DNA of 45,875 nt from Candidatus Thorarchaeota archaeon (GTDB lineage: Archaea; Asgardarchaeota; Thorarchaeia; Thorarchaeales; Thorarchaeaceae), in NCBI GenBank assembly GCA_048882485.1, contig JBHLRP010000016.1, positions 18,473 to 64,347 on the forward strand, given 5' to 3'. A model generated the notes under the pieces. The model was not told the DNA's origin. It worked only from the letters and a program-made list of their open reading frames with translations, and made no database searches. How positions within the stretch are numbered: position 1 is the stretch's first letter; every line of letters begins with the position of its first letter. This document shows positions 5,230-45,875 of the stretch, piece by piece. A program made the translations under genes and the position numbers.

Positions 5230-5268
5230 TCCCCCCTTCTTTTTATAGGGGGGATGTTTCTTCTTTTG
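5230..5268 (+). terminator. Intercistronic hairpin plus U-rich tract after the binding-protein gene
   Basis: TCCCCCCT-(9 nt)-AGGGGGGA followed by TGTTTCTTCTTTTG. Confidence 0.55.
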
Positions 5269-28047: not shown

Positions 28048-28311
28048 CTACTTAAGATGACCGCCGCAGAGCAACCCAAGGCCAATCGGACGTAACTCGA
28101 TACTATCACCAGATTCAACAGTATCGTTCAGCTTAGCTGGTATTCCATTGATGTAGCAATTGCCAAGTTCTATCGCGGTCAATCCTAAACTCGAGATTAC
28201 ATGACCCAAAGATTCTCCTCGTACTGATTTTCGAATTAGCACTGATTTGTGACTTTGCTGATTGCCAATGACAAGTTCCGCAAGGCAATCATGAAGATGA
28301 ATCTCTATCAT
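28048..28311 (-). CDS. Second beta-grasp ubiquitin-like protein (MoaD/Mut7-C-Ub-like), ending CGG-HLK
   Basis: IEIHLHDCL...SLGHVISSLGL...YING...VESGDSIELRP. The probable start is ATG 28311 (the track gives 28413). Confidence 0.7.
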   Translation of the reverse strand: MIEIHLHDCLAELVIGNQQSHKSVLIRKSVRGESLGHVISSLGLTAIELGNCYINGIPAKLNDTVESGDSIELRPIGLGLLCGGHLK

Positions 28312-28379
28312 TTTGAGCTCAAAGAGAATTCTCAATTGATAAGCTCTGAGATACTGGCTAATTGGAATAAGAGTCTGTA

Positions 28380-28853
28380 CTAGGAAGAGCCAACAGGAGG
28401 CGCTTCGTCCCAATCGAAATCTGACTCTTTGGGCTTTCCATTCTGCTCAGGAGCTTCCTTTGGGATATTCTCTGCATGAAACTTGAAGTTCAGATCATCT
28501 GCTGCCACGTTAGGGGGCTCCTCAGATACTTCAGATTTCACACCGGCGAGTTCCTTTATGCCGTCAATCATCTCGCTCAAATCTTCTCCTTCATCTGCAC
28601 TCAGCTCACCCGATGGAAAATCCTCGACCTCTGGCAAGCCTAGTCTATCCAACACGTATTTGATGACCCGCCTAGTAATTTCCCATCCCCGCTTTTGCAT
28701 TATGCGTTGTATCTCATCGAGGACAGCCTCATACTTCTTGCCACTATACTCTATACTCTGTAGGAAATCTTCATCTCTTATCTCTATGATACTGGAACTC
28801 ACTAATACCTCGATATTAGTCCCCGGAAGTCGCACTGCATGTAACACCTGCAA
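28380..28853 (-). CDS. Hypothetical protein with an acidic, probably disordered C-terminus
   Basis: 157-aa ORF co-oriented upstream of the Ubl pair. Confidence 0.65.
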   Translation of the reverse strand: MQVLHAVRLPGTNIEVLVSSSIIEIRDEDFLQSIEYSGKKYEAVLDEIQRIMQKRGWEITRRVIKYVLDRLGLPEVEDFPSGELSADEGEDLSEMIDGIKELAGVKSEVSEEPPNVAADDLNFKFHAENIPKEAPEQNGKPKESDFDWDEAPPVGSS

Positions 28854-28995: not shown

Positions 28996-29571
28996 ATGGA
29001 CGCTCTTCTTGTGTTTTTATTGCTCACACCCATAATCACAGGAGCTTTCTGCTCATCAAAAGGTGCTGCTAAAACTGAGGTTTTGCCTTCTGCCAAAACC
29101 TCGAATAAGGAAATCCGATCTGAAGAGTATGTACCCAAGGTTGAGGAACCAGCAGCAAAGCTACAGGAACTCCCTATTGAAACAGTCGAAGGAATTGGTA
29201 CAGTCTTTGGTGCCAAACTGAGGAAAGGTGGCATCGCTACCGTAGAGGACCTGCTAACAAGCGGCACTATTCAAGTTGCCAGAATTTGTGGCGTTTCTGA
29301 AGACATGGCATCAAAATGGCAAGCCATGAGTCGGTTCTGCTGGTTGGAAGGAATTTCAGAAGAAGACTCTGAGGCCATAGTAAATGTGGGCATTAAAAAC
29401 TACAGGGATCTGGCTGATGCCGAACCTGACGTACTTCTAGCTAAGGTGACTCAAGCTGTCGCTGATGGTGCTGTTGAAATCCCAAAAGGATATGAATTTA
29501 CTTTAGAGAAGGTCCAGAAATGGATTGAAGTCGTTACGACCTTTATCAACGAATGGCAAAGGCCGGAATAA
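28996..29571 (+). CDS. DUF4332-like tandem helix-hairpin-helix protein with an N-terminal hydrophobic segment
   Basis: IETVEGIGTVFGAKLRKGGIATVEDLL, LEGISEEDSEAIVNVGI..DLA and VQKWIE motifs. Confidence 0.8.
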   Translation: MDALLVFLLLTPIITGAFCSSKGAAKTEVLPSAKTSNKEIRSEEYVPKVEEPAAKLQELPIETVEGIGTVFGAKLRKGGIATVEDLLTSGTIQVARICGVSEDMASKWQAMSRFCWLEGISEEDSEAIVNVGIKNYRDLADAEPDVLLAKVTQAVADGAVEIPKGYEFTLEKVQKWIEVVTTFINEWQRPE

Positions 29572-29763
29572 TGCATTTCTCCTGGCACAAAGCTGTTTTG
29601 CGTTAAACAGGATTCACCCAAATGAATGTCTATATTGCCCCATAATAGATTCTAATAGACGAAAATAGTTTATTTTTCATTTCTTCGATGGCTTTCTGCT
29701 TGGTACATCGTCGAATGTTTGACATTGTATAAAGATAGGTGTTGGCATTAAGGGTTGGCTGGG

Positions 29764-32700
29764 ATGAAGAGAATTGCCGCTGTTGCATTGATTGTATTCT
29801 TCTTTCTCGCACCATCAATTGAGCATCAGACATTTCCAGCGCCATCAAGAGGATCGCGGGAGTCCTCAGCAGGAAATGACTCGAGCTATTTAGCTGAAGG
29901 CACAGGATCCTATGAAGGCACAGGTGAATCATTACCCGTTGATTTGAATGGGCTCTACTCCGGATATGGCACAGCCTCCTTTGATTCTTCTATGCCCGGA
30001 TACCTAACAATGAACATCCCAGAAAGCTGGACTAGTGATCACCTGACCACAAGTATAGATGACCTGTCAAGGTGGGTCGATAGCGTTCTGATTAATCCAA
30101 GGCTTGATACATATCACAACGAAAGATGGCTTTTCACAGGTTCTGATTCTCAGTTCAACGGAGATAACTTCAAAGTGCCTGATGGATGGACACTGGAGAA
30201 GTCAGATCCGACAACTGGTTCCCAGCATCCTCTTCAGGGTATTTTCGATCTTTACGGAAGCCTTGGAGCAGGATATGATAATACAATTGGGTGGGAGTTC
30301 GCGGGCAATTACGCAGGCACAACACCTCTTGAACCAACAAATGAAGTCTACTTGAGTCAACAGGTATTGGCACCTTGGAGAGAATTATACTCAGCTGAAA
30401 TCAACTTCCTCTATTATGTACGTAGCCTGTCGGATATGGACAACGGCGTCCATCTCTTTGCAAGATTTGGGGATTTCGTGACCAAGCTTGAAGTTTTTGA
30501 CACTGGAGACGCTGTAGACACATGGATTGAGGCTCAGGTCACCGTGCCAAAGTCCTATCTTCAGACTCTAGCTGTACCTAATTCAGTGCTATTCGATATA
30601 GGACTTGGGACTGACATAAGCGGTCAACCCGGAATCGGAGGCAACCATGCAGCGTATATAGATGAGATTGAGCTCAAACTCAATGTCAGACCATTCCCTG
30701 AACAGATTAACTTGAAGGCCAATGGGGCTTCAGTAAAGGGTTCAACTGCAGGTTCAATTTCCACTTATGTTCCAGATGGTGCCAATAGAGACTGCTACAG
30801 CAATGTGAGCTCAGGAATAGATCTCAACGGTCCTAGCGATAATGGTGTTTTGAATATGGGAGCAAACGCCCCGGCATTTCCTGACTGGAGCACAGCCTAT
30901 TCATACCAGGTGGGGCTTCAGTTTCCTTTAGATGCCCCACAAGGCAGTGCGATTACTTCAGCGTACCTGGAAGTGGAGGCTGAAACTGGCGCTCAATATC
31001 TGACAGACACTTTTGATGGTAGAATGCGGATACTTGTTGCAGACGAGAACACAGTCACTGCGTTCACCACTGGATTGCCCGAACTCGCTGATCGCTACAA
31101 TTGGGTCGATACTGACATTGTATGGACTCCTAGTGACTGGACTGCAGGCACCAGATATACATCTCCAAATATTGCTCCAATTCTGCAAAAGGTTGTGTCT
31201 AGAGCTGATTGGCAGAGCGGTAACTATGTCTGTATCATGCTTGAATACGCACACTCAACAAATGACTTGTCCTGGAACAACATTAAAGGTTCTAGCAATT
31301 ATCCTCAAGCTGATCTTTCTAGACTATTCGTGGACTATCTGACTCCAGAGCCGGAGGACATTGTATATAGCTTTGAAAAGAGCAAGACCATAAGCGTTGA
31401 CCATCTGAAGGTGGCTGGCAACCTTTACGATTTCCCGGTTCTGGTTGATATTTGGGATGCGGACTTGCATACTGATGTTCAACCAGATGGGGACGACATC
31501 GGGTTCATGATCGGTCATGAAACTCTTGATCATGAGATTGTGATTTTTGATCGTACCGGAGATGGGACGCGTGCGCATCTGGTAGCATGGGTACGTGTTC
31601 CATTTCTTTCATCAACTAGAAACACCGACATTGTGATGCTCTACGGAAACAGGTATGTTGGAAATCAAGAAACAGTAGAGGGAGTGTGGGATGATGACTT
31701 CGTTGGAGTATGGCACCTAGAGGAGGATCCCGCCGGTACCAACTTCGACAGCACATCATTCGCCAATGACGGAACTGGGGAGCCTCCAGGCAATGAACCA
31801 GGCTATATCATAGGGAGAATTGGCATGTCAGCAGAGTTCTATGGTGCGACGCTACGTCGAGTTGAAGTTCCCCATGACAACAGCCTGGCAATACCAGGTA
31901 GTCTAACAGTTGACACTTGGATACGTACAAATAATACAGACGGCTCCTCAGATGCCATCCTTGCGAAATGGAATGAAGTGGGCAATAGAAACTACTGGCT
32001 CGGAAAATTGGATGCCAGTACCCTAGCGTTCTTCGTGGATGATACGCAGTCAGTGAGTACATCGTATAGTCTAGTTAATGATGGGGGTTGGCATCACGTG
32101 GTGGGTGTCGCTGATGCCACCAAGCAGAATCTGTACCTGTTTGTTGATGGTGCCTTACGAAACACTGCTGCCTATACTGGTTCAATGCAGGTTGGTGATT
32201 CAGTCCTGCATATAGGCAATAATCCAGGTTCAATTGGTCTTGATCAAGAATGGGATGGTCTAATTGATGAGGCGAGGGTATCCAAAAACGTTCGGACTTC
32301 TGAATGGGTCCTGACAAGCTACAGAAACCAAATCAGCCCCCTTGCCTTCTACAGTGTAGGTCAGGAGAGTCAAATAGCATGGTTCGATTCAGACTGGAGT
32401 TATCGAAAAGTAGCCACAGTTTCTGCTGATACATCTGATATCCCTGCAGGATATTCAATCTATCTGACATTTGATCATGCAACGCTAGTAAGTGAAGGAA
32501 AATCCTTGGCAAATGGAGATGACATTCGTATAGTGTACTGGGATGGATCCCAATGGATTGAGCTCGACAGGATGCTGGACACAGACTCGACTTGGAATAG
32601 TGATTCGACCAAGATATGGTTTAAGACACAAACATCAATTCCAGCCTCTTCTTCAGATTCGGGCTACTATCTTTATTATGGTAATCCTTTGCCTAGCTCT

Positions 32701-35700
32701 CCTCCAAGTGATAGCTCTCGTGTGTTCACCTTCTATGATGGGTTTGAGAGCGGCAATCTTGATGGTTGGAATGGTTCGAGTACTGATACAGGTGATACAT
32801 TGATGGTTCTGAATACGCCACTCATACCAGTCCATTCCGGAACCTATGCAGTCAGAGCGGATGTAGATAACCAGGCAGCCGCTCAAGGGATGGTCTGGTG
32901 GGATTTCAGTGACTCAATGAATCTATTTGCTCGGGTCCACTTCTACCTACCAGTGGGATTCTCTACCACCGATCATGTAACCATAATGCAGTATATTGAC
33001 ACTTCGACTGGCTGGCAGAATCAGATTAGTGTGACAATAAAGGATGACATGACGCTGTACATGTGGAATGCAATCGCCGCTGAAGCTTATGGCTACATGG
33101 CTACTAATACTATTTCTACAGGATCTTGGCATATGTTAGAGATGCAGGCTCGAATCTCTGACACCAATGGCGAGGCGAGATTGTGGTTGGATGGAAATCT
33201 CGAGATTGAGGAAACAGGGAGAAATCTCGGAACCGAGGGTATTGATAGATTCTGCACGGTATTCTATTGGGCGTCTCCGCAGACGGAACCTAATACGGTT
33301 TATGCAGACGATGCCTTCCTCAGGCCATTTCTGAGCCCTGAACCAAGTGTATTCCTTGGTCCTGAATTAACACAGGCAATTCAATTCAATTTCAAGAAAG
33401 ACATAGTCGTTGACCACACAAAGGTCAATTCGGACTTGGTAGACTTCCCTCTTCTGATTGATATCTATGATACTGACCTAAAAACTGATACTGAAGTTGA
33501 TGGTGATGACATCTTATTTCTGAAGGATGGCTGGATTCTTCCTCATGAGATTGAGCTCTTCGACCAGCAACACAATTCTACTCATGCCCACCTTGTCGCT
33601 TGGGTCAAGACTGATCTCTCATCCTCCAGGGATACTGTAGTTTCAATGTATTATGGAAACCCATCGATGCAGAATCTTCAGAATCCTTCCAGTGTATGGA
33701 GCAATTCATACGGTGGAGTGTGGCATTTGAATGATAATCCGACAGGGATGATTTATGATTCTACTTCTAATGACAATAATGGTACTTCCTCAGGCGGCAT
33801 GACTTCAGACGACCAAATACCTGGACAAATCGACGGTTCTTTAGATTTTGATGGATCTGATGATGAAGTGAATCTTCCCCGAGCAGTCATTGGCGACCGT
33901 GCAGCCTGGACAATCTCAGCCTGGATCAAAATGGGTGCTGATACTGCAGACCAGAGAACGATTTACAGTGAGGGGAATACTGGCGTAACAGAATATCTCT
34001 TTCTGTATGTAGATGACACCAATTCAGAGGTGAGGTTCTATTCGACAACAGCTATTGGCGATTATACTCAAGTAATTGGCTCGACAAATGTTGAGGACAA
34101 CCAATGGCACTTTGTCACGTTTGTCCAACGGTCGAAGACTGACCGAGAGCTGTATGTCGATGGCTTATCCGAAGGAACCAGTATACAAGATACAGGAACC
34201 TTCGCCACTGATACAGCCAATATTGGAGTTCTGATTTCTGATTGGGTCGCAGATTGGTTCAATGGTACGATTGATGAGGTCCGTATTTCATATTCAGCAC
34301 GTTCCGCGGACTGGATTACAACTGAATTCAATAATCAATATAACATAGCCAGTTTCTTCTCCATTGGAAGTGAGATACCTCTTCTTGAAAAAGTGGGAGA
34401 GTTTCTATACCAGAAAGAGATCATAATAGACCACACAAAGGTCGATGCAGACCTGACGGACTTCCCATTGTTGGTCAACATATATGATACCGATCTCAAG
34501 ACTGACATCCAAGCTGATGGAAACGATATCGTGTTTGCGAAGAATGGCGTGATTCTCCCACACGAGATTGAGCTATTTGATCAGTCATACAACTCCACTC
34601 ATACTCATCTAGTCGCTTGGGTCAAGACGAATATTTCTTCAACAATTGACACAAAATTGTCCATGCTTTACGGTAATCCAACCTACAAGAACAGCGAGAA
34701 TCCAGAAGGTGTTTGGACATCAGACTATAGAGGAGTCTGGCACCTTAGCGATGATCCAGCTAATCCTGCACCTCAGATTAAGGACAGTACGTCTTACCAC
34801 ATCGATGGTACAAAATATGGAGGTTTATCGACCAGCAGTCAAATCGAAGGACAAATAGATGGAAGTTTAGACTTCAATGCTTCGACTAACGATTACATTG
34901 ACTGCGGAGATCAATCTGAATTAAATATGGGAACAGGAGATTTCAGTCTCTCTTTGTGGTTCAGATTCGATGGCGCAAATAACGGTCCACTAGCAGGAAA
35001 GGGTGCCTACGGCGGCGGTGGGAAACGTTACTTCATTGCACTTGAAAACGACCGTGTGAAAGGAGAGATAGATGATAATGGCGCCTCAGGCAAGAAATCC
35101 ATATCGTCCTTTGCATTGATGGATGATAACTTATGGCATCAAGTTGTAATGATTAGGAGCGGCAACAGTCTTAGACTCTTCATTGATGGCAACGAGGATC
35201 TAAACTCTCCGATAGACATCACAGGCTATGGCAATATAGACCAGGTGATGCCATTTACAATCAATACTCTTTCTAGTGACCCAGTTGTGCCAACCTTCAC
35301 TGATTGGGCGGGTGTCGAACTTGATGAGATTAGGGTTGTGTCATCTGCCCGCTCTGCAAGCTGGATTCTATCGGAATACAATAATCTGAAAGAGCCGTCT
35401 TCTTTCCTTGCTGTTGGAAGTAAAAGACTCCTTCAACCAGGAGGATTCGAGAATCAAAAGATAATAACTGTGGACAGCACCAAAGTGCTTTCAAATCTAA
35501 ATGACTACCCACTCCTTTTGGACTTATACGACAGAGACCTCCGTACTGATGTCCAGAATGACGGCGATGACATTGCATTCAAAATTGGAAAAACTGTATT
35601 AGACTATGAGATTGAGGTCTTTGATCAAACATGGAATAGCACACATGCACATCTTATCGCATGGGTGAGAGTGCCATTTCTTTCGTCTGCTGTTGATACT

Positions 35701-38700
35701 GAGATTACCATGTTATACGGCAATCCCGATATCGGGAAGCAGGAGAATCCAAATGGGGTTTGGGACAATCGTTACGCAGGTGTATGGCACCTCTCCGAGT
35801 CTTCCGGAGATGCACTTGACTCGACATCATATGCAACTCAAGGGACTCCCACAGGTGGAGTAGCGCAGGGGATATCAGGATACATTGGCCAGGCCTATGA
35901 CTTCAACGGCATAGATGGAACAGTAGACTTTGGCGACCCATCAGATGGCCACCTAGATTTTGGAACATCTAGCTTCTCGTACAGCATTTGGGTGAGAGTC
36001 GACTCAAATACAGGCACATGGCAACTACCATTCTCAAAGGGAGGAGCTACTTCAACAGACACTGGCTATGAAATTGAAACTACCAGCGATGGGACTTCAA
36101 TGAATTCATGGGTGAGTGATGGATCCATTGCCCGGGTCACTACTTTGACTCCTATCACATTCGGTGAGTGGGTGTATCTTGTTGCAGTCGTCAATAGGGA
36201 AACAAACAGAGTCCTCCTCTTCAGAGATGGAATTGAAACTGGCTCTGGCCAGTCGTTGACTAGCTTTGGAAGTCTCAGTACCACTCAATCACTTTACATC
36301 TCAAGACCCACATATGAGCTAGATGGGGTGGTTGATGAGGCGAGGATAGCTCTTAAGCCACTTGACCCCAACTGGATTTACACTGAATATCTAAATCAGA
36401 AAGACCCTTCATCGTTCTATAGTGTGGGAGAGGAGTCAGGGGCAGCCAAGAACGAAGTGACTGTTGGTTTTACGACAAACTCAGAATCAGGTGTGTCGCT
36501 TTCTACGTCAATGATTCTCACTGTAGGGAGTACTATCCAGAGCCTAGCAAACAACCTCTCGCCGGGAACAAGCTTCTCAGTCATAAATGGCACTCTACCC
36601 ATATGGACAGCTAATATCTTGGTTACTGCTCCAGTTGGTGTGGATCACCTCGGTTTCAACATCAATTATCCAACAGGGGCATGGAAGCCGATATCGGTCA
36701 TCAATCCAGAGGGGATTCACAAGACAGAAGGTATAGATTGGACTAAGACAGGAGAAGGACTCATAGTCAGGCCTTATGCTGTGGACTCGCAAGGCATCTG
36801 GAAGATTCAGTTTGAGGATAGAAATCATGTCATGGATCTTGAAATGGGGCTCTCTGCAGGCGGCTTTGCTTCCACAGCCACATTCGAGGTTGGAGATATA
36901 ATTCGGTTTAGGAATCAGGCACCTTCATTGACAGGATCATTGGTATCTATCGATTTAATAGACCCTTCTGGAGCTGTTTGGTATTCGACAGATCCAGTGT
37001 ATCAAGGATTGTCTTTCTCTCTTCCATTCTCCAAGAGAAAGTCGCTAGTGATTGATCACAACAAAGTCGCATCCGACCTCGAGAACTTCCCTGTCCTGCT
37101 TGAGCTCTATGACACAGACCTTCATACTGGCGTGAGGGCGGATGGAGCGGACATCGCGTTCGCAGCTGGAAACCTTGCTTTGGACCATGAGATTGAGTTG
37201 TTTGACCAGAACTATAATGGCACACATGCGCGGCTAGTCAGCTGGGTGGAAGTGCCCAATCTATCAGCCACAGCTGACACCACCATAACGATGTATTACG
37301 GGAATCCATATGCACCAAGCCGCGAGAATCCATCAGGTGTCTGGGATTCAGATTTCGTAGGAGTATGGCACTTGGGGGAGTCAGGGACTGGGCTGGTTGA
37401 CGAGTATATTGACAGCAGCATATATGACAATCACGGTCAGGGCGGTTTCGGGAATTCAACCTATGTCCCGACAAGAACCACAGCCGCTATTGGGTATGGA
37501 CAAGACTTCACAAATCATTTCATCGACTGCGGGAATGATACAAGTTTGGATGCATTTGGCCACCAAATCACACTGCAGCTATGGATGCAGTTTCCAGCAA
37601 CGCATCCTACAATGGGTCCCATCAATCACAAAGGATGGTATGATGGATATCGATTGCTTATGTGGCCTAACAGTCAAAACGTGAAGTTCCACTTGCATGG
37701 GGATGACTATGACCTAGAAACCTCTCAAACAATTACTCCTAGCTCATGGCATCATGTGACTGCAGTTTATGATGGCGAGTACATGAGAATCTACTTGGAT
37801 GGGGACCCAGACCCAGCTGTGATGGCAAAGACGGATGATATATTGTCAGCTTTGCCATATCCATTCAGAATCGGCCACGGAGACCACCCAGAGGCCAAGT
37901 CGTGGACTTATCCATGGATTGGACAAATCGATGAGGTACGAATTTCAAATGTGGCCCGATCCAGTAGCTGGATCTGGACTGAATACCAGAATCAGGCTGA
38001 CCCACAGAGCTTCTTCAATGTAGGTAGCGAACAGCCTCTTGGCTTCTACTCCTCACCGAACATCAACCTTGATTCATCAGCTAGTGAAGGCGTTTGGACG
38101 GTCCAGGCAAACTACTGGGACAACAATGGGCTAGTGAGAGAGAAGGTCGGGAGCCTGAGTAGAAGTTTCATTGTGACTCACGATGCCTCTCTTAGCCTTG
38201 AAGCTCCAACAGATGCAATCTCAGACCATACTGCCGCAAGAGAGGTAGGTGAGGAGGTTTACATCGAGGTTGAACTCACAGACACGGTTACAGCAAGTCT
38301 TGTTGGTGGAGCAACTGTCACAATGAACTGGACAGTTCTAGGAACGCCGACGGTGGTCATGCTAAACGACCTCGGTGGCGGCCGGTACGGGAAGGCATTG
38401 AATACCTCTGATCTGGGTGAGGCAAGAAGATGGAGAGTCGAGCTCAACTCATATCACCCATACTACTCTAACGCGACTGAATATCTTGACATCGACATCT
38501 CCCATCGGAGCTATCTTACTGTAGTGCCACCTGATCCAATTCCATACAGTGATGATTTCATCGTTAAGGTGACACTTCGTGACGCCTTCGATAATTCACT
38601 AATCAGCGGTGCATCCATCACCTCAAACGGAACATTTGCTGCAGCACCTGTTGACTATGGGAACGGGACATATCTTGTAACAATCGATGGCGCAGGCTAT

Positions 38701-45875: not shown

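Follow-up and report, generated by a model that had tools for sequence, protein, structure and literature searches.

A putative multivalent glycan-binding giant surface protein with an Ig-like stalk and a conserved cytoplasmic tail in a Thor/Hermodarchaeota-lineage Asgard archaeon

We analysed a stretch of 45,875 nucleotides from a Candidatus Thorarchaeota genome (contig JBHLRP010000016.1; G000:C16:18473-64347, where G000 is this genome and C16 the contig; hereafter the window), which ends within a single very long gene on the forward strand that we call giant gene A, and its product giant A. Taken as a whole, its anatomy is best explained, at a probability of roughly 0.6, as that of a multivalent glycan-binding, adhesin-type, type-I surface protein. 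The gene is predicted to encode a type-I membrane protein of ~5,480 residues (~0.6 MDa before glycosylation), in which the distal end of the ectodomain carries eight jelly rolls of carbohydrate-binding type, namely two that resemble carbohydrate-binding modules (CBMs), five LamG domains and one polysaccharide-lyase-like ConA domain, together with six DUF2341 spacers. A long stalk of immunoglobulin-like (Ig-like) domains, one transmembrane (TM) helix and a helical tail follow. The features of the gene, with residue numbers of the translation, are listed below; the evidence is from hidden Markov models (HMMs) and AlphaFold2 (AF2) models.

29764..45875 (+): giant gene A; open reading frame open from 29755 (TTG), probable start ATG 29764, ~112 codons missing at the contig end
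29764..29826 (+): predicted Sec signal peptide (MKR, a 13-residue hydrophobic core, then PSIEH; AF2 helix 2-15; kept in alignment A2)
29827..30069 (+): Ser/Gly/Glu-rich segment, probably disordered (pLDDT <50 at model residues 15-70 and 78-97)
30070..30690 (+), aa 106-312: head domain 1, beta jelly roll of CBM4/16/61 type
30745..31341 (+), aa 331-529: head domain 2, CBM96/DNRLRE-like fold
31372..32394 (+), aa 540-880: module M1, DUF2341 + LamG (HMM)
32395..33384 (+), aa 881-1210: module M2, variant DUF2341 + PF14099, polysaccharide-lyase-like, ConA-type (HMM)
33385..34401 (+), aa 1211-1549: module M3, DUF2341 + LamG (HMM)
34402..35445 (+), aa 1550-1897: module M4, DUF2341 + LamG (HMM); LamG half, ~34702-35454, swapped relative to the ortholog
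35446..36474 (+), aa 1898-2240: module M5, DUF2341 + LamG (HMM)
36475..37026 (+), aa 2241-2424: 184-aa beta-rich insert ahead of M6; no Pfam match, weak stalk HMM matches
37027..38043 (+), aa 2425-2763: module M6, DUF2341 + LamG (HMM)
38236..45438 (+), aa 2828-5228: stalk, 23 tiled Ig-like beta-sandwich domains with 62 N-x-S/T sequons (iterated HMM, AF2, fold matches)
45448..45534 (+), aa ~5232-5260: single TM helix, then a basic juxtamembrane stretch (AF2 helix, model residues 521-549; alignment A1)
45535..45875 (+): first 113 residues of the conserved helical cytoplasmic tail; the remainder (acidic linker and terminal three-helix motif, ~112 aa) lies past the contig end

This order reproduces that of an original prediction made from the sequence alone, which had proposed a signal peptide, a beta-rich N-terminal region, six DUF2341-based modules with LamG/ConA-like domains, ~2,400 aa of sequon-rich Ig-like repeats, one TM helix and a cytoplasmic tail; each of these elements was recovered, as was the Asgard host, for which a Thor/Hermodarchaeota-type lineage is supported.

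Giant gene A is a real, conserved and intact gene, cut only by the end of its contig. The listing of open reading frames gives one frame at 29755..45873 (+), with 5,373 codons, no internal stop and an open 3' end, in agreement with the at least 5,370 codons first proposed. The frame opens with TTG at 29755 and the first in-frame ATG, at 29764, is the start used by gene callers: a database copy of the identical protein from another assembly (P0002) begins MKRIAAV. The original prediction looked for a continuation in a next window, but none exists, as position 45875 is also the last base of contig C16 (64,347 bases), and the gene is thus truncated by the contig and not merely by the window. A full-length ortholog from a genome of the same genus (P0003, genome G005; 5,473 aa, 81% identical, and 93% over the head) runs 112 residues past the last codon available here, and by this comparison only ~112 codons are missing from a complete gene of ~5,480. 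The missing C-terminus was not found in the 157 contigs of the assembly, where tblastn searches with six paralog tails returned only known paralogs. P0002 stops earlier still, its end falling at residue 5044 of the 5,373 in the translation, and as both copies are broken, at different places, the gene repeatedly fragments assemblies; breakage of short-read assemblies at two places in turn means that counts of such giants in metagenome-assembled genomes (MAGs) are underestimates. We recovered 74 relatives of 3-6.5 thousand residues, and 57 relatives share the architecture of giant A. The gene had been thought hidden from annotation, which it is not: public annotation calls it, homologs in Thor/Hermodarchaeota MAGs are named 'DUF2341 domain-containing protein' by NCBI, and P0003 itself is entered as 'MAG: DUF2341 domain-containing protein [Candidatus Hermodarchaeota archaeon]'.

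At the N-terminus, residues 4-24 resemble a Sec signal peptide, as judged from the sequence and the AF2 helix. The AF2 model of the head, built from 29 homologs (mean pLDDT 78, pTM 0.75, ~90 over model residues 100-535), consists of two beta jelly rolls. The fold matches of domain 1 include glucuronan lyase 2zzj, whilst the nearest folds to domain 2 are a chondroitin-sulfate CBM and the founder of CBM96 (TM6-N4 of alginate lyase Dp0100, PDB 7VBO), on which its beta-sandwich superposes at 10% sequence identity. The founder is itself related in sequence to the DNRLRE domain (PMC9971899). A DNRLRE/CBM96-like segment had been read directly from the letters here, and this stands at the level of the fold but not at that of the sequence, where no HMM detects it: NCBIfam gave no CBM96/DNRLRE match (NF033679) in aa 1-560 at E<=0.01, and Pfam gave no match of any kind in aa 320-545 at E<=1.

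The head is followed by six modules of ~340 aa, whose families were called by HMM match against the Pfam gathering score. M1, M3, M4, M5 and M6 each consist of DUF2341 and Laminin_G_3 and share 34-43% pairwise identity, whilst M2 is a variant in which DUF2341 (PF10102, 33.8 bits) is joined to PF14099, a polysaccharide-lyase family of ConA-like fold (42.6 bits against a cut-off of 29.9; aa 1052-1185, profile positions 60-207 of 210). PF10102 matches all six modules, above its cut-off in four and just below it in M1 and M3, and PF13385 (Laminin_G_3) is above cut-off in five of the six. In longer segments PF13385 reached 240.9 bits (aa 1300-2800) and 88.2 bits (aa 1-1400), and PF10102 62-70 bits. 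Sequence searches returned no PDB relative of the DUF2341-LamG modules or of M2. Elsewhere, DUF2341 proteins have been proposed as pilus-tip adhesins of archaea (PMC4858521).

Beyond the modules, 23 units of ~100 aa tile residues 2828-5228 with neither gaps nor overlaps. The units are too divergent for self-BLAST, which found no internal repeat in the stalk, and became visible only with an iterated profile, which started from the five domains nearest the membrane and was refined over 14 members of the family. An AF2 model of the last five units of the ortholog (50 sequences) has a pLDDT >90 throughout, and the modelled domains match Ig-like, S-layer and invasin domains in Foldseek and VIA, single domains resembling SbsC, Sap and SlaA/SlaB at fold level. 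The stalk contains 61 N-x-S/T sequons where shuffles of matched composition have 23.7 +/- 4.2 (a 2.6-fold enrichment), whilst sequons are depleted in the head (2 against 5.1) and in the modules (16 against 22.3). The HMM-defined limits raise this number to 62, and sequons occur in 22 of the 23 domains. These positions are kept to a degree far above what residue identity would lead one to expect of a three-residue motif: 60 of 62 are retained in the 81% identical ortholog and 48-52 of 62 in relatives that are ~50% identical over the stalk. The genome also contains an STT3/AglB oligosaccharyltransferase gene; a search for Ribophorin I had no match in it, and as control genomes had none either this result is uninformative. 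The enrichment and conservation of the sequons, together with STT3/AglB, lend good, if indirect, support to an extracellular stalk that is N-glycosylated and to binding domains from which glycans are kept away.

The stalk ends at the TM helix, after which the chain continues into a tail of ~230 residues (~260 with the helix). As the tail sits on the basic, K/R-rich side of the membrane, we take it to be cytoplasmic. An alignment of 15 proteins (A1) has a mean column identity of 56%, with an invariant Pro in the TM helix and a basic stretch of SVPKRLR type. A helical core follows, with the near-invariant run PEIEELLIQLSILT ... SKMKLSEQ ... EVI.QE, then an acidic disordered linker and, at the end, a three-helix motif (L.E.E...R..L...G....E...I..Q...LPR.LV.EL). 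Up to the contig end, the tail of giant A is 91% identical to that of P0003 and 38-51% to the 13 others, and giant A scores 248 bits against the tail profile, over profile positions 1-142. The profile matches 151 clusters among 1.84 billion representative proteins and is C-terminal in all of them. Of the genomes sampled, 57 of 59 from the taxonomic family have it, as does the single one from the sister family; among sampled Asgard genomes from elsewhere it gave weak matches in five families and none in 21 others. Against Pfam the 15 members gave scattered sub-threshold matches at E<=1 with no consistent family, and the best E-value against PDB sequences was 0.57. The tail is, as far as these profiles and searches reach, a rare family confined mainly to this lineage and without a Pfam or PDB relative. 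The terminal three-helix motif searched separately (A4) had as its best match an 18-residue stretch of L7/L12, at a non-significant E-value of 0.019, and UBA-, SAP- or HeH-like assignments of the motif were unsupported by sequence-profile searches.

Comparison with P0003 locates the variation within the gene. The two proteins are ~90-95% identical in the head, M1-M2, most of the stalk and the tail, and 58-80% identical from M3 to the first stalk domains. In the LamG half of M4 (~34702-35454) identity drops to 21-33%, against ~90% in its flanks. The M4 LamG of P0003 shares 70% identity with a module in a C-type giant (see below) of another MAG, whilst that of giant A is at most 53% identical to any other module compared. 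With so low an identity between the orthologs, and with the cassette of P0003 nearer to the module of another giant, the alignments indicate replacement of this cassette as opposed to gradual divergence. It looks like an exchange of cassettes between giants, and points to a changing ligand specificity.

Giant A has many relatives within its own genome, where at least nine paralogs bear the tail. Canonical modules number nine in C19a, five (plus one variant) in giant A, two in C2a, and one each in C19b, C2b and C76. Three shorter paralogs of 2,586, 2,574 and 1,837 aa (a pair at G000:C1:183912-199408 and one at G000:C44:5903-11419) share the Ig-like stalk, TM helix and tail, but have no head that Pfam detects. 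Stalk, TM helix and tail thus form a chassis for different heads. Giant A is also the first gene of a cluster: in blastn comparisons the end of C16, C76 (in reverse) and C19 (1-32530) are colinear with contig C8 of G005, with 2.48 kb between C16 and C76, which implies four tandem giants over ~62 kb in the order A (~5,485 aa), B (3,986 aa), two small genes, C (6,554 aa) and D (3,987 aa). The cluster is intact in G005, of the same genus. Stop and start codons overlap by 4 nt in the A/B and C/D pairs of G005, and likewise in the C1 pair of the present genome, and from the overlap in the ortholog we infer that A and B are probably co-translated. The B- and D-type tails have four terminal three-helix motifs (G000:C76:1527-3092, G000:C19:30929-32530), the A- and C-type tails one. 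A complex prediction for an A-type with a B-type tail scored 0.00, which speaks neither for nor against their pairing.

The two small genes between B and C encode a divergent 439-aa protein with a C-terminal Ras/Roc GTPase domain, on the opposite strand (L015:13637-14956 (+) of G005:C8; G000:C76:74-1414 in the present genome), and a 207-aa leucine-rich-repeat (LRR) protein (L015:12824-13447 (-) of G005:C8; G000:C19:176-799). Upstream of the giant pair on C1 is a gene for a second LRR protein, of 377 aa. In many genera, tail matches lie on one strand at a spacing of 10-12 kb, so that tandem pairs are a trait of the family, and the synteny of the C2-type pair (G000:C2:109802-131888) is kept in at least four other genera, with ThiI and DUF2334 upstream and a Rad51-like gene, GcvH and an AAA protein downstream. 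No dedicated neighbour gene was found at six loci in five other genomes or at any of the paralog loci in this one; the genes in common were only housekeeping ones (ThiI, DUF2334, Rad51-like, GcvH, hydantoinase).

Upstream of giant A lie DUF4332/helix-hairpin-helix, ubiquitin-like, RtcB-like, HD and ATPase_2-like genes. Directly upstream, 28996-29571 (+) encodes the 191-aa DUF4332/helix-hairpin-helix protein, which occupies the same place in G005 and is not found beside other paralogs. A ubiquitin-like Ub-Mut7C domain (E 7e-7) is found in the 121-aa product of 28048-28413 (-), 1.4 kb upstream. The 157-aa reading frame at 28380-28853 (-) has no Pfam match; over 97 aa it shares 32% identity with the N-terminal region of the C76 GTPase protein. 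Upstream of the window, G000:C16:2336-17848 (-) is a second giant reading frame of 5,171 aa; it is unrelated, with no BLAST match to the giant A family.

As a glycan-binding adhesin, giant A would project from the single membrane of its Thor/Hermodarchaeota-lineage host and hold its lectin-type domains at a distance of the order of 100 nm off the cell, where they may bind polysaccharides or the glycosylated surfaces of other cells or particles. If an Ig-like domain measures ~4 nm, 23 of them would give ~90 nm for the stalk alone. The glycosylated stalk may act as a protease-resistant spacer, the tail would dock the protein to a cytoplasmic partner, and LamG cassettes may be traded among paralogs, varying specificity. 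The targets could be glycans of partner cells, extracellular polymeric substances or detrital acidic polysaccharides. A multivalent lectin head on a long stalk, suited to partner capture or cell-cell contact, was what the original prediction envisaged; the anatomy now stands domain by domain, from the head through the glycosylated stalk to the type-I topology, whilst the function is deduced from the types of domain present. Several points weigh against the adhesin reading, that deduction among them. LamG and CBM folds are found in enzymes too, and in proteins whose role is purely structural. Neither the head domains nor the tail match a sequence family, so that binding-site residues cannot be compared, and the gene is incomplete in this assembly. 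The nearest folds to the stalk also include S-layer proteins, which suits a structural coat equally well.

Such a coat, an irregular envelope or glycocalyx that the giants would form in place of an S-layer, with the lectin domains cross-linking the cell's own glycans, we regard as a possibility of low probability. A rod of 5,480 residues on one TM helix is improbable as the subunit of a lattice, the swap of the LamG cassette and a module number ranging from 1 to 9 suggest changing specificity as opposed to a fixed scaffold, and a conserved cytoplasmic tail of ~260 aa would be superfluous in a coat protein. The same head could instead serve in feeding, the CBM and LamG domains binding detrital acidic polysaccharides of alginate, glycosaminoglycan or glucuronan type and the PF14099 domain of M2 being an active lyase. 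The folds nearest to the head are modules of polysaccharide lyases that bind chondroitin sulfate, alginate or hyaluronan, with 2zzj among the matches to domain 1, and PF14099 is both above its cut-off in M2 and listed by precomputed Pfam in many homologs. However, only one of the eight jelly rolls is lyase-like, its match is confined to profile positions 60-207 of 210, the lack of a PDB relative of M2 by sequence means that catalytic residues cannot be compared, and no carbohydrate-active enzyme (CAZyme) or sugar-transporter gene adjoins any of the loci, the flanks of which are housekeeping genes; we consider this use rather improbable.

Tandem giants raise the further idea of a mobile-element cargo of 'aloposon' type, or of a surface protein for virus decoy or defence. 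Tandem pairs of the giant A family occur in many genera, cassette exchange would suit an arms race, and the tandem giant genes of Thorarchaeota, in which neighbours are highly similar, have been reported as distantly related to an aloposon giant (PMC8813620). Against this, ARAGORN found no tRNA gene on C16, C76 or C19, the upstream genes scanned included neither an integrase nor MinD/ParA, the flanks are housekeeping genes that are syntenic across genera at the C2-type locus, and occurrence in 57 of the 59 genomes from this taxonomic family is what a vertically inherited host gene would show, all of which makes a mobile or defensive origin very improbable.

A further reading is that the conserved tail could make the giants true transmembrane receptors, coupling the binding of glycans or partners outside to cytoplasmic machinery, which we think unlikely on present grounds. 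One type of tail (basic juxtamembrane stretch, helical core, acidic linker and one to four three-helix motifs) is found on differing ectodomains; in such receptors the partner candidates would include the Ras/Roc-type GTPase of the cluster, the LRR protein or the cytoskeleton, and the translationally coupled A/B and C/D pairs may be heteromeric units. If true, this would be an Asgard-specific adhesion-receptor system, analogous but not homologous to the LamG receptors of eukaryotes.

Asgard cells have no ordered S-layer and numerous complex surface proteins, which are thought to mediate the contacts with syntrophic partners invoked in models of eukaryogenesis (PMC9834061). Giant A offers a fully dissected example with pieces suitable for testing, namely a 420-residue CBM-type head, single LamG cassettes, ~50 conserved sequons and a lineage-specific tail, and its swapped cassette, together with module numbers from 1 to 9, suggests that specificity evolves by cassette exchange.

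Parts of this architecture have close counterparts. No domain is commoner than Laminin_G_3 among archaeal proteins of >=5,000 aa, for which the 'function is not understood' (PMC11573180), and these LamG 'huge proteins', or the NCBI 'DUF2341 domain-containing protein' entries of Thor/Hermodarchaeota, share PF10102 and PF13385, size class and lineage with giant A; the CBM-type head, 23-unit stalk, sequon conservation, tail family and four-gene cluster are described only for giant A. Nerearchaeum marumarumayae encodes a 5,416-aa adhesin-like giant with 54 fibronectin-like domains (10.1101/2025.07.22.663070); compared by description, it likewise has a signal peptide, a long beta-sandwich rod, a membrane span and a proposed far reach from the surface, but its repeats are fibronectin-like only and it is without a DUF2341-LamG array. 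The aloposon giants Otus and Ephialtes of Heimdallarchaeum, again compared by description, have in common with the A-B, C-D, C2 and C1 pairs the tandem arrangement of giant genes, but not integration at a tRNA gene downstream or the four conserved upstream genes that include MinD/ParA. With archaeal S-layer glycoproteins the comparison is one of fold, between single Ig-like stalk domains and SbsC, Sap and SlaA/SlaB.

Bacterial adhesins of the type of MpIBP (Marinomonas primoryensis), LapA and SiiE are exported by type I secretion, are retained in the outer membrane and consist of near-identical, Ca2+-stabilised repeats. In giant A, unlike these, a Sec-type signal peptide is combined with a C-terminal TM helix and cytoplasmic tail, and with divergent, BLAST-invisible repeats that carry N-glycosylation sequons. 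The general plan is the same, with extender repeats of ~100 aa and Ig-like fold and distal lectin or ligand-binding domains (PMC4083281, PMC8092209). RTX/HemolysinCabind has no match anywhere in giant A, and a C-terminus made up of a TM helix and helical tail is not that of an RTX adhesin of the type I secretion system. On the eukaryotic side the comparison is one of analogy only. Alpha-neurexin, CASPR and the LG1-5 region of laminin alpha have a type-I topology, five to six exposed LamG domains, one TM helix and a cytoplasmic tail that is conserved, whereas giant A has no EGF domains and no detectable homology in its tail, and beyond the LamG fold, which is widespread, nothing points to a shared ancestry. 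What was already known is therefore the gene and its relatives under a generic database name, LamG giants and Asgard adhesin-like giants; what is new is the CBM96-like head, the conservation of sequons in the stalk, the swap of a LamG cassette, the cluster of four giants and a rare family of tails that has no known relatives.

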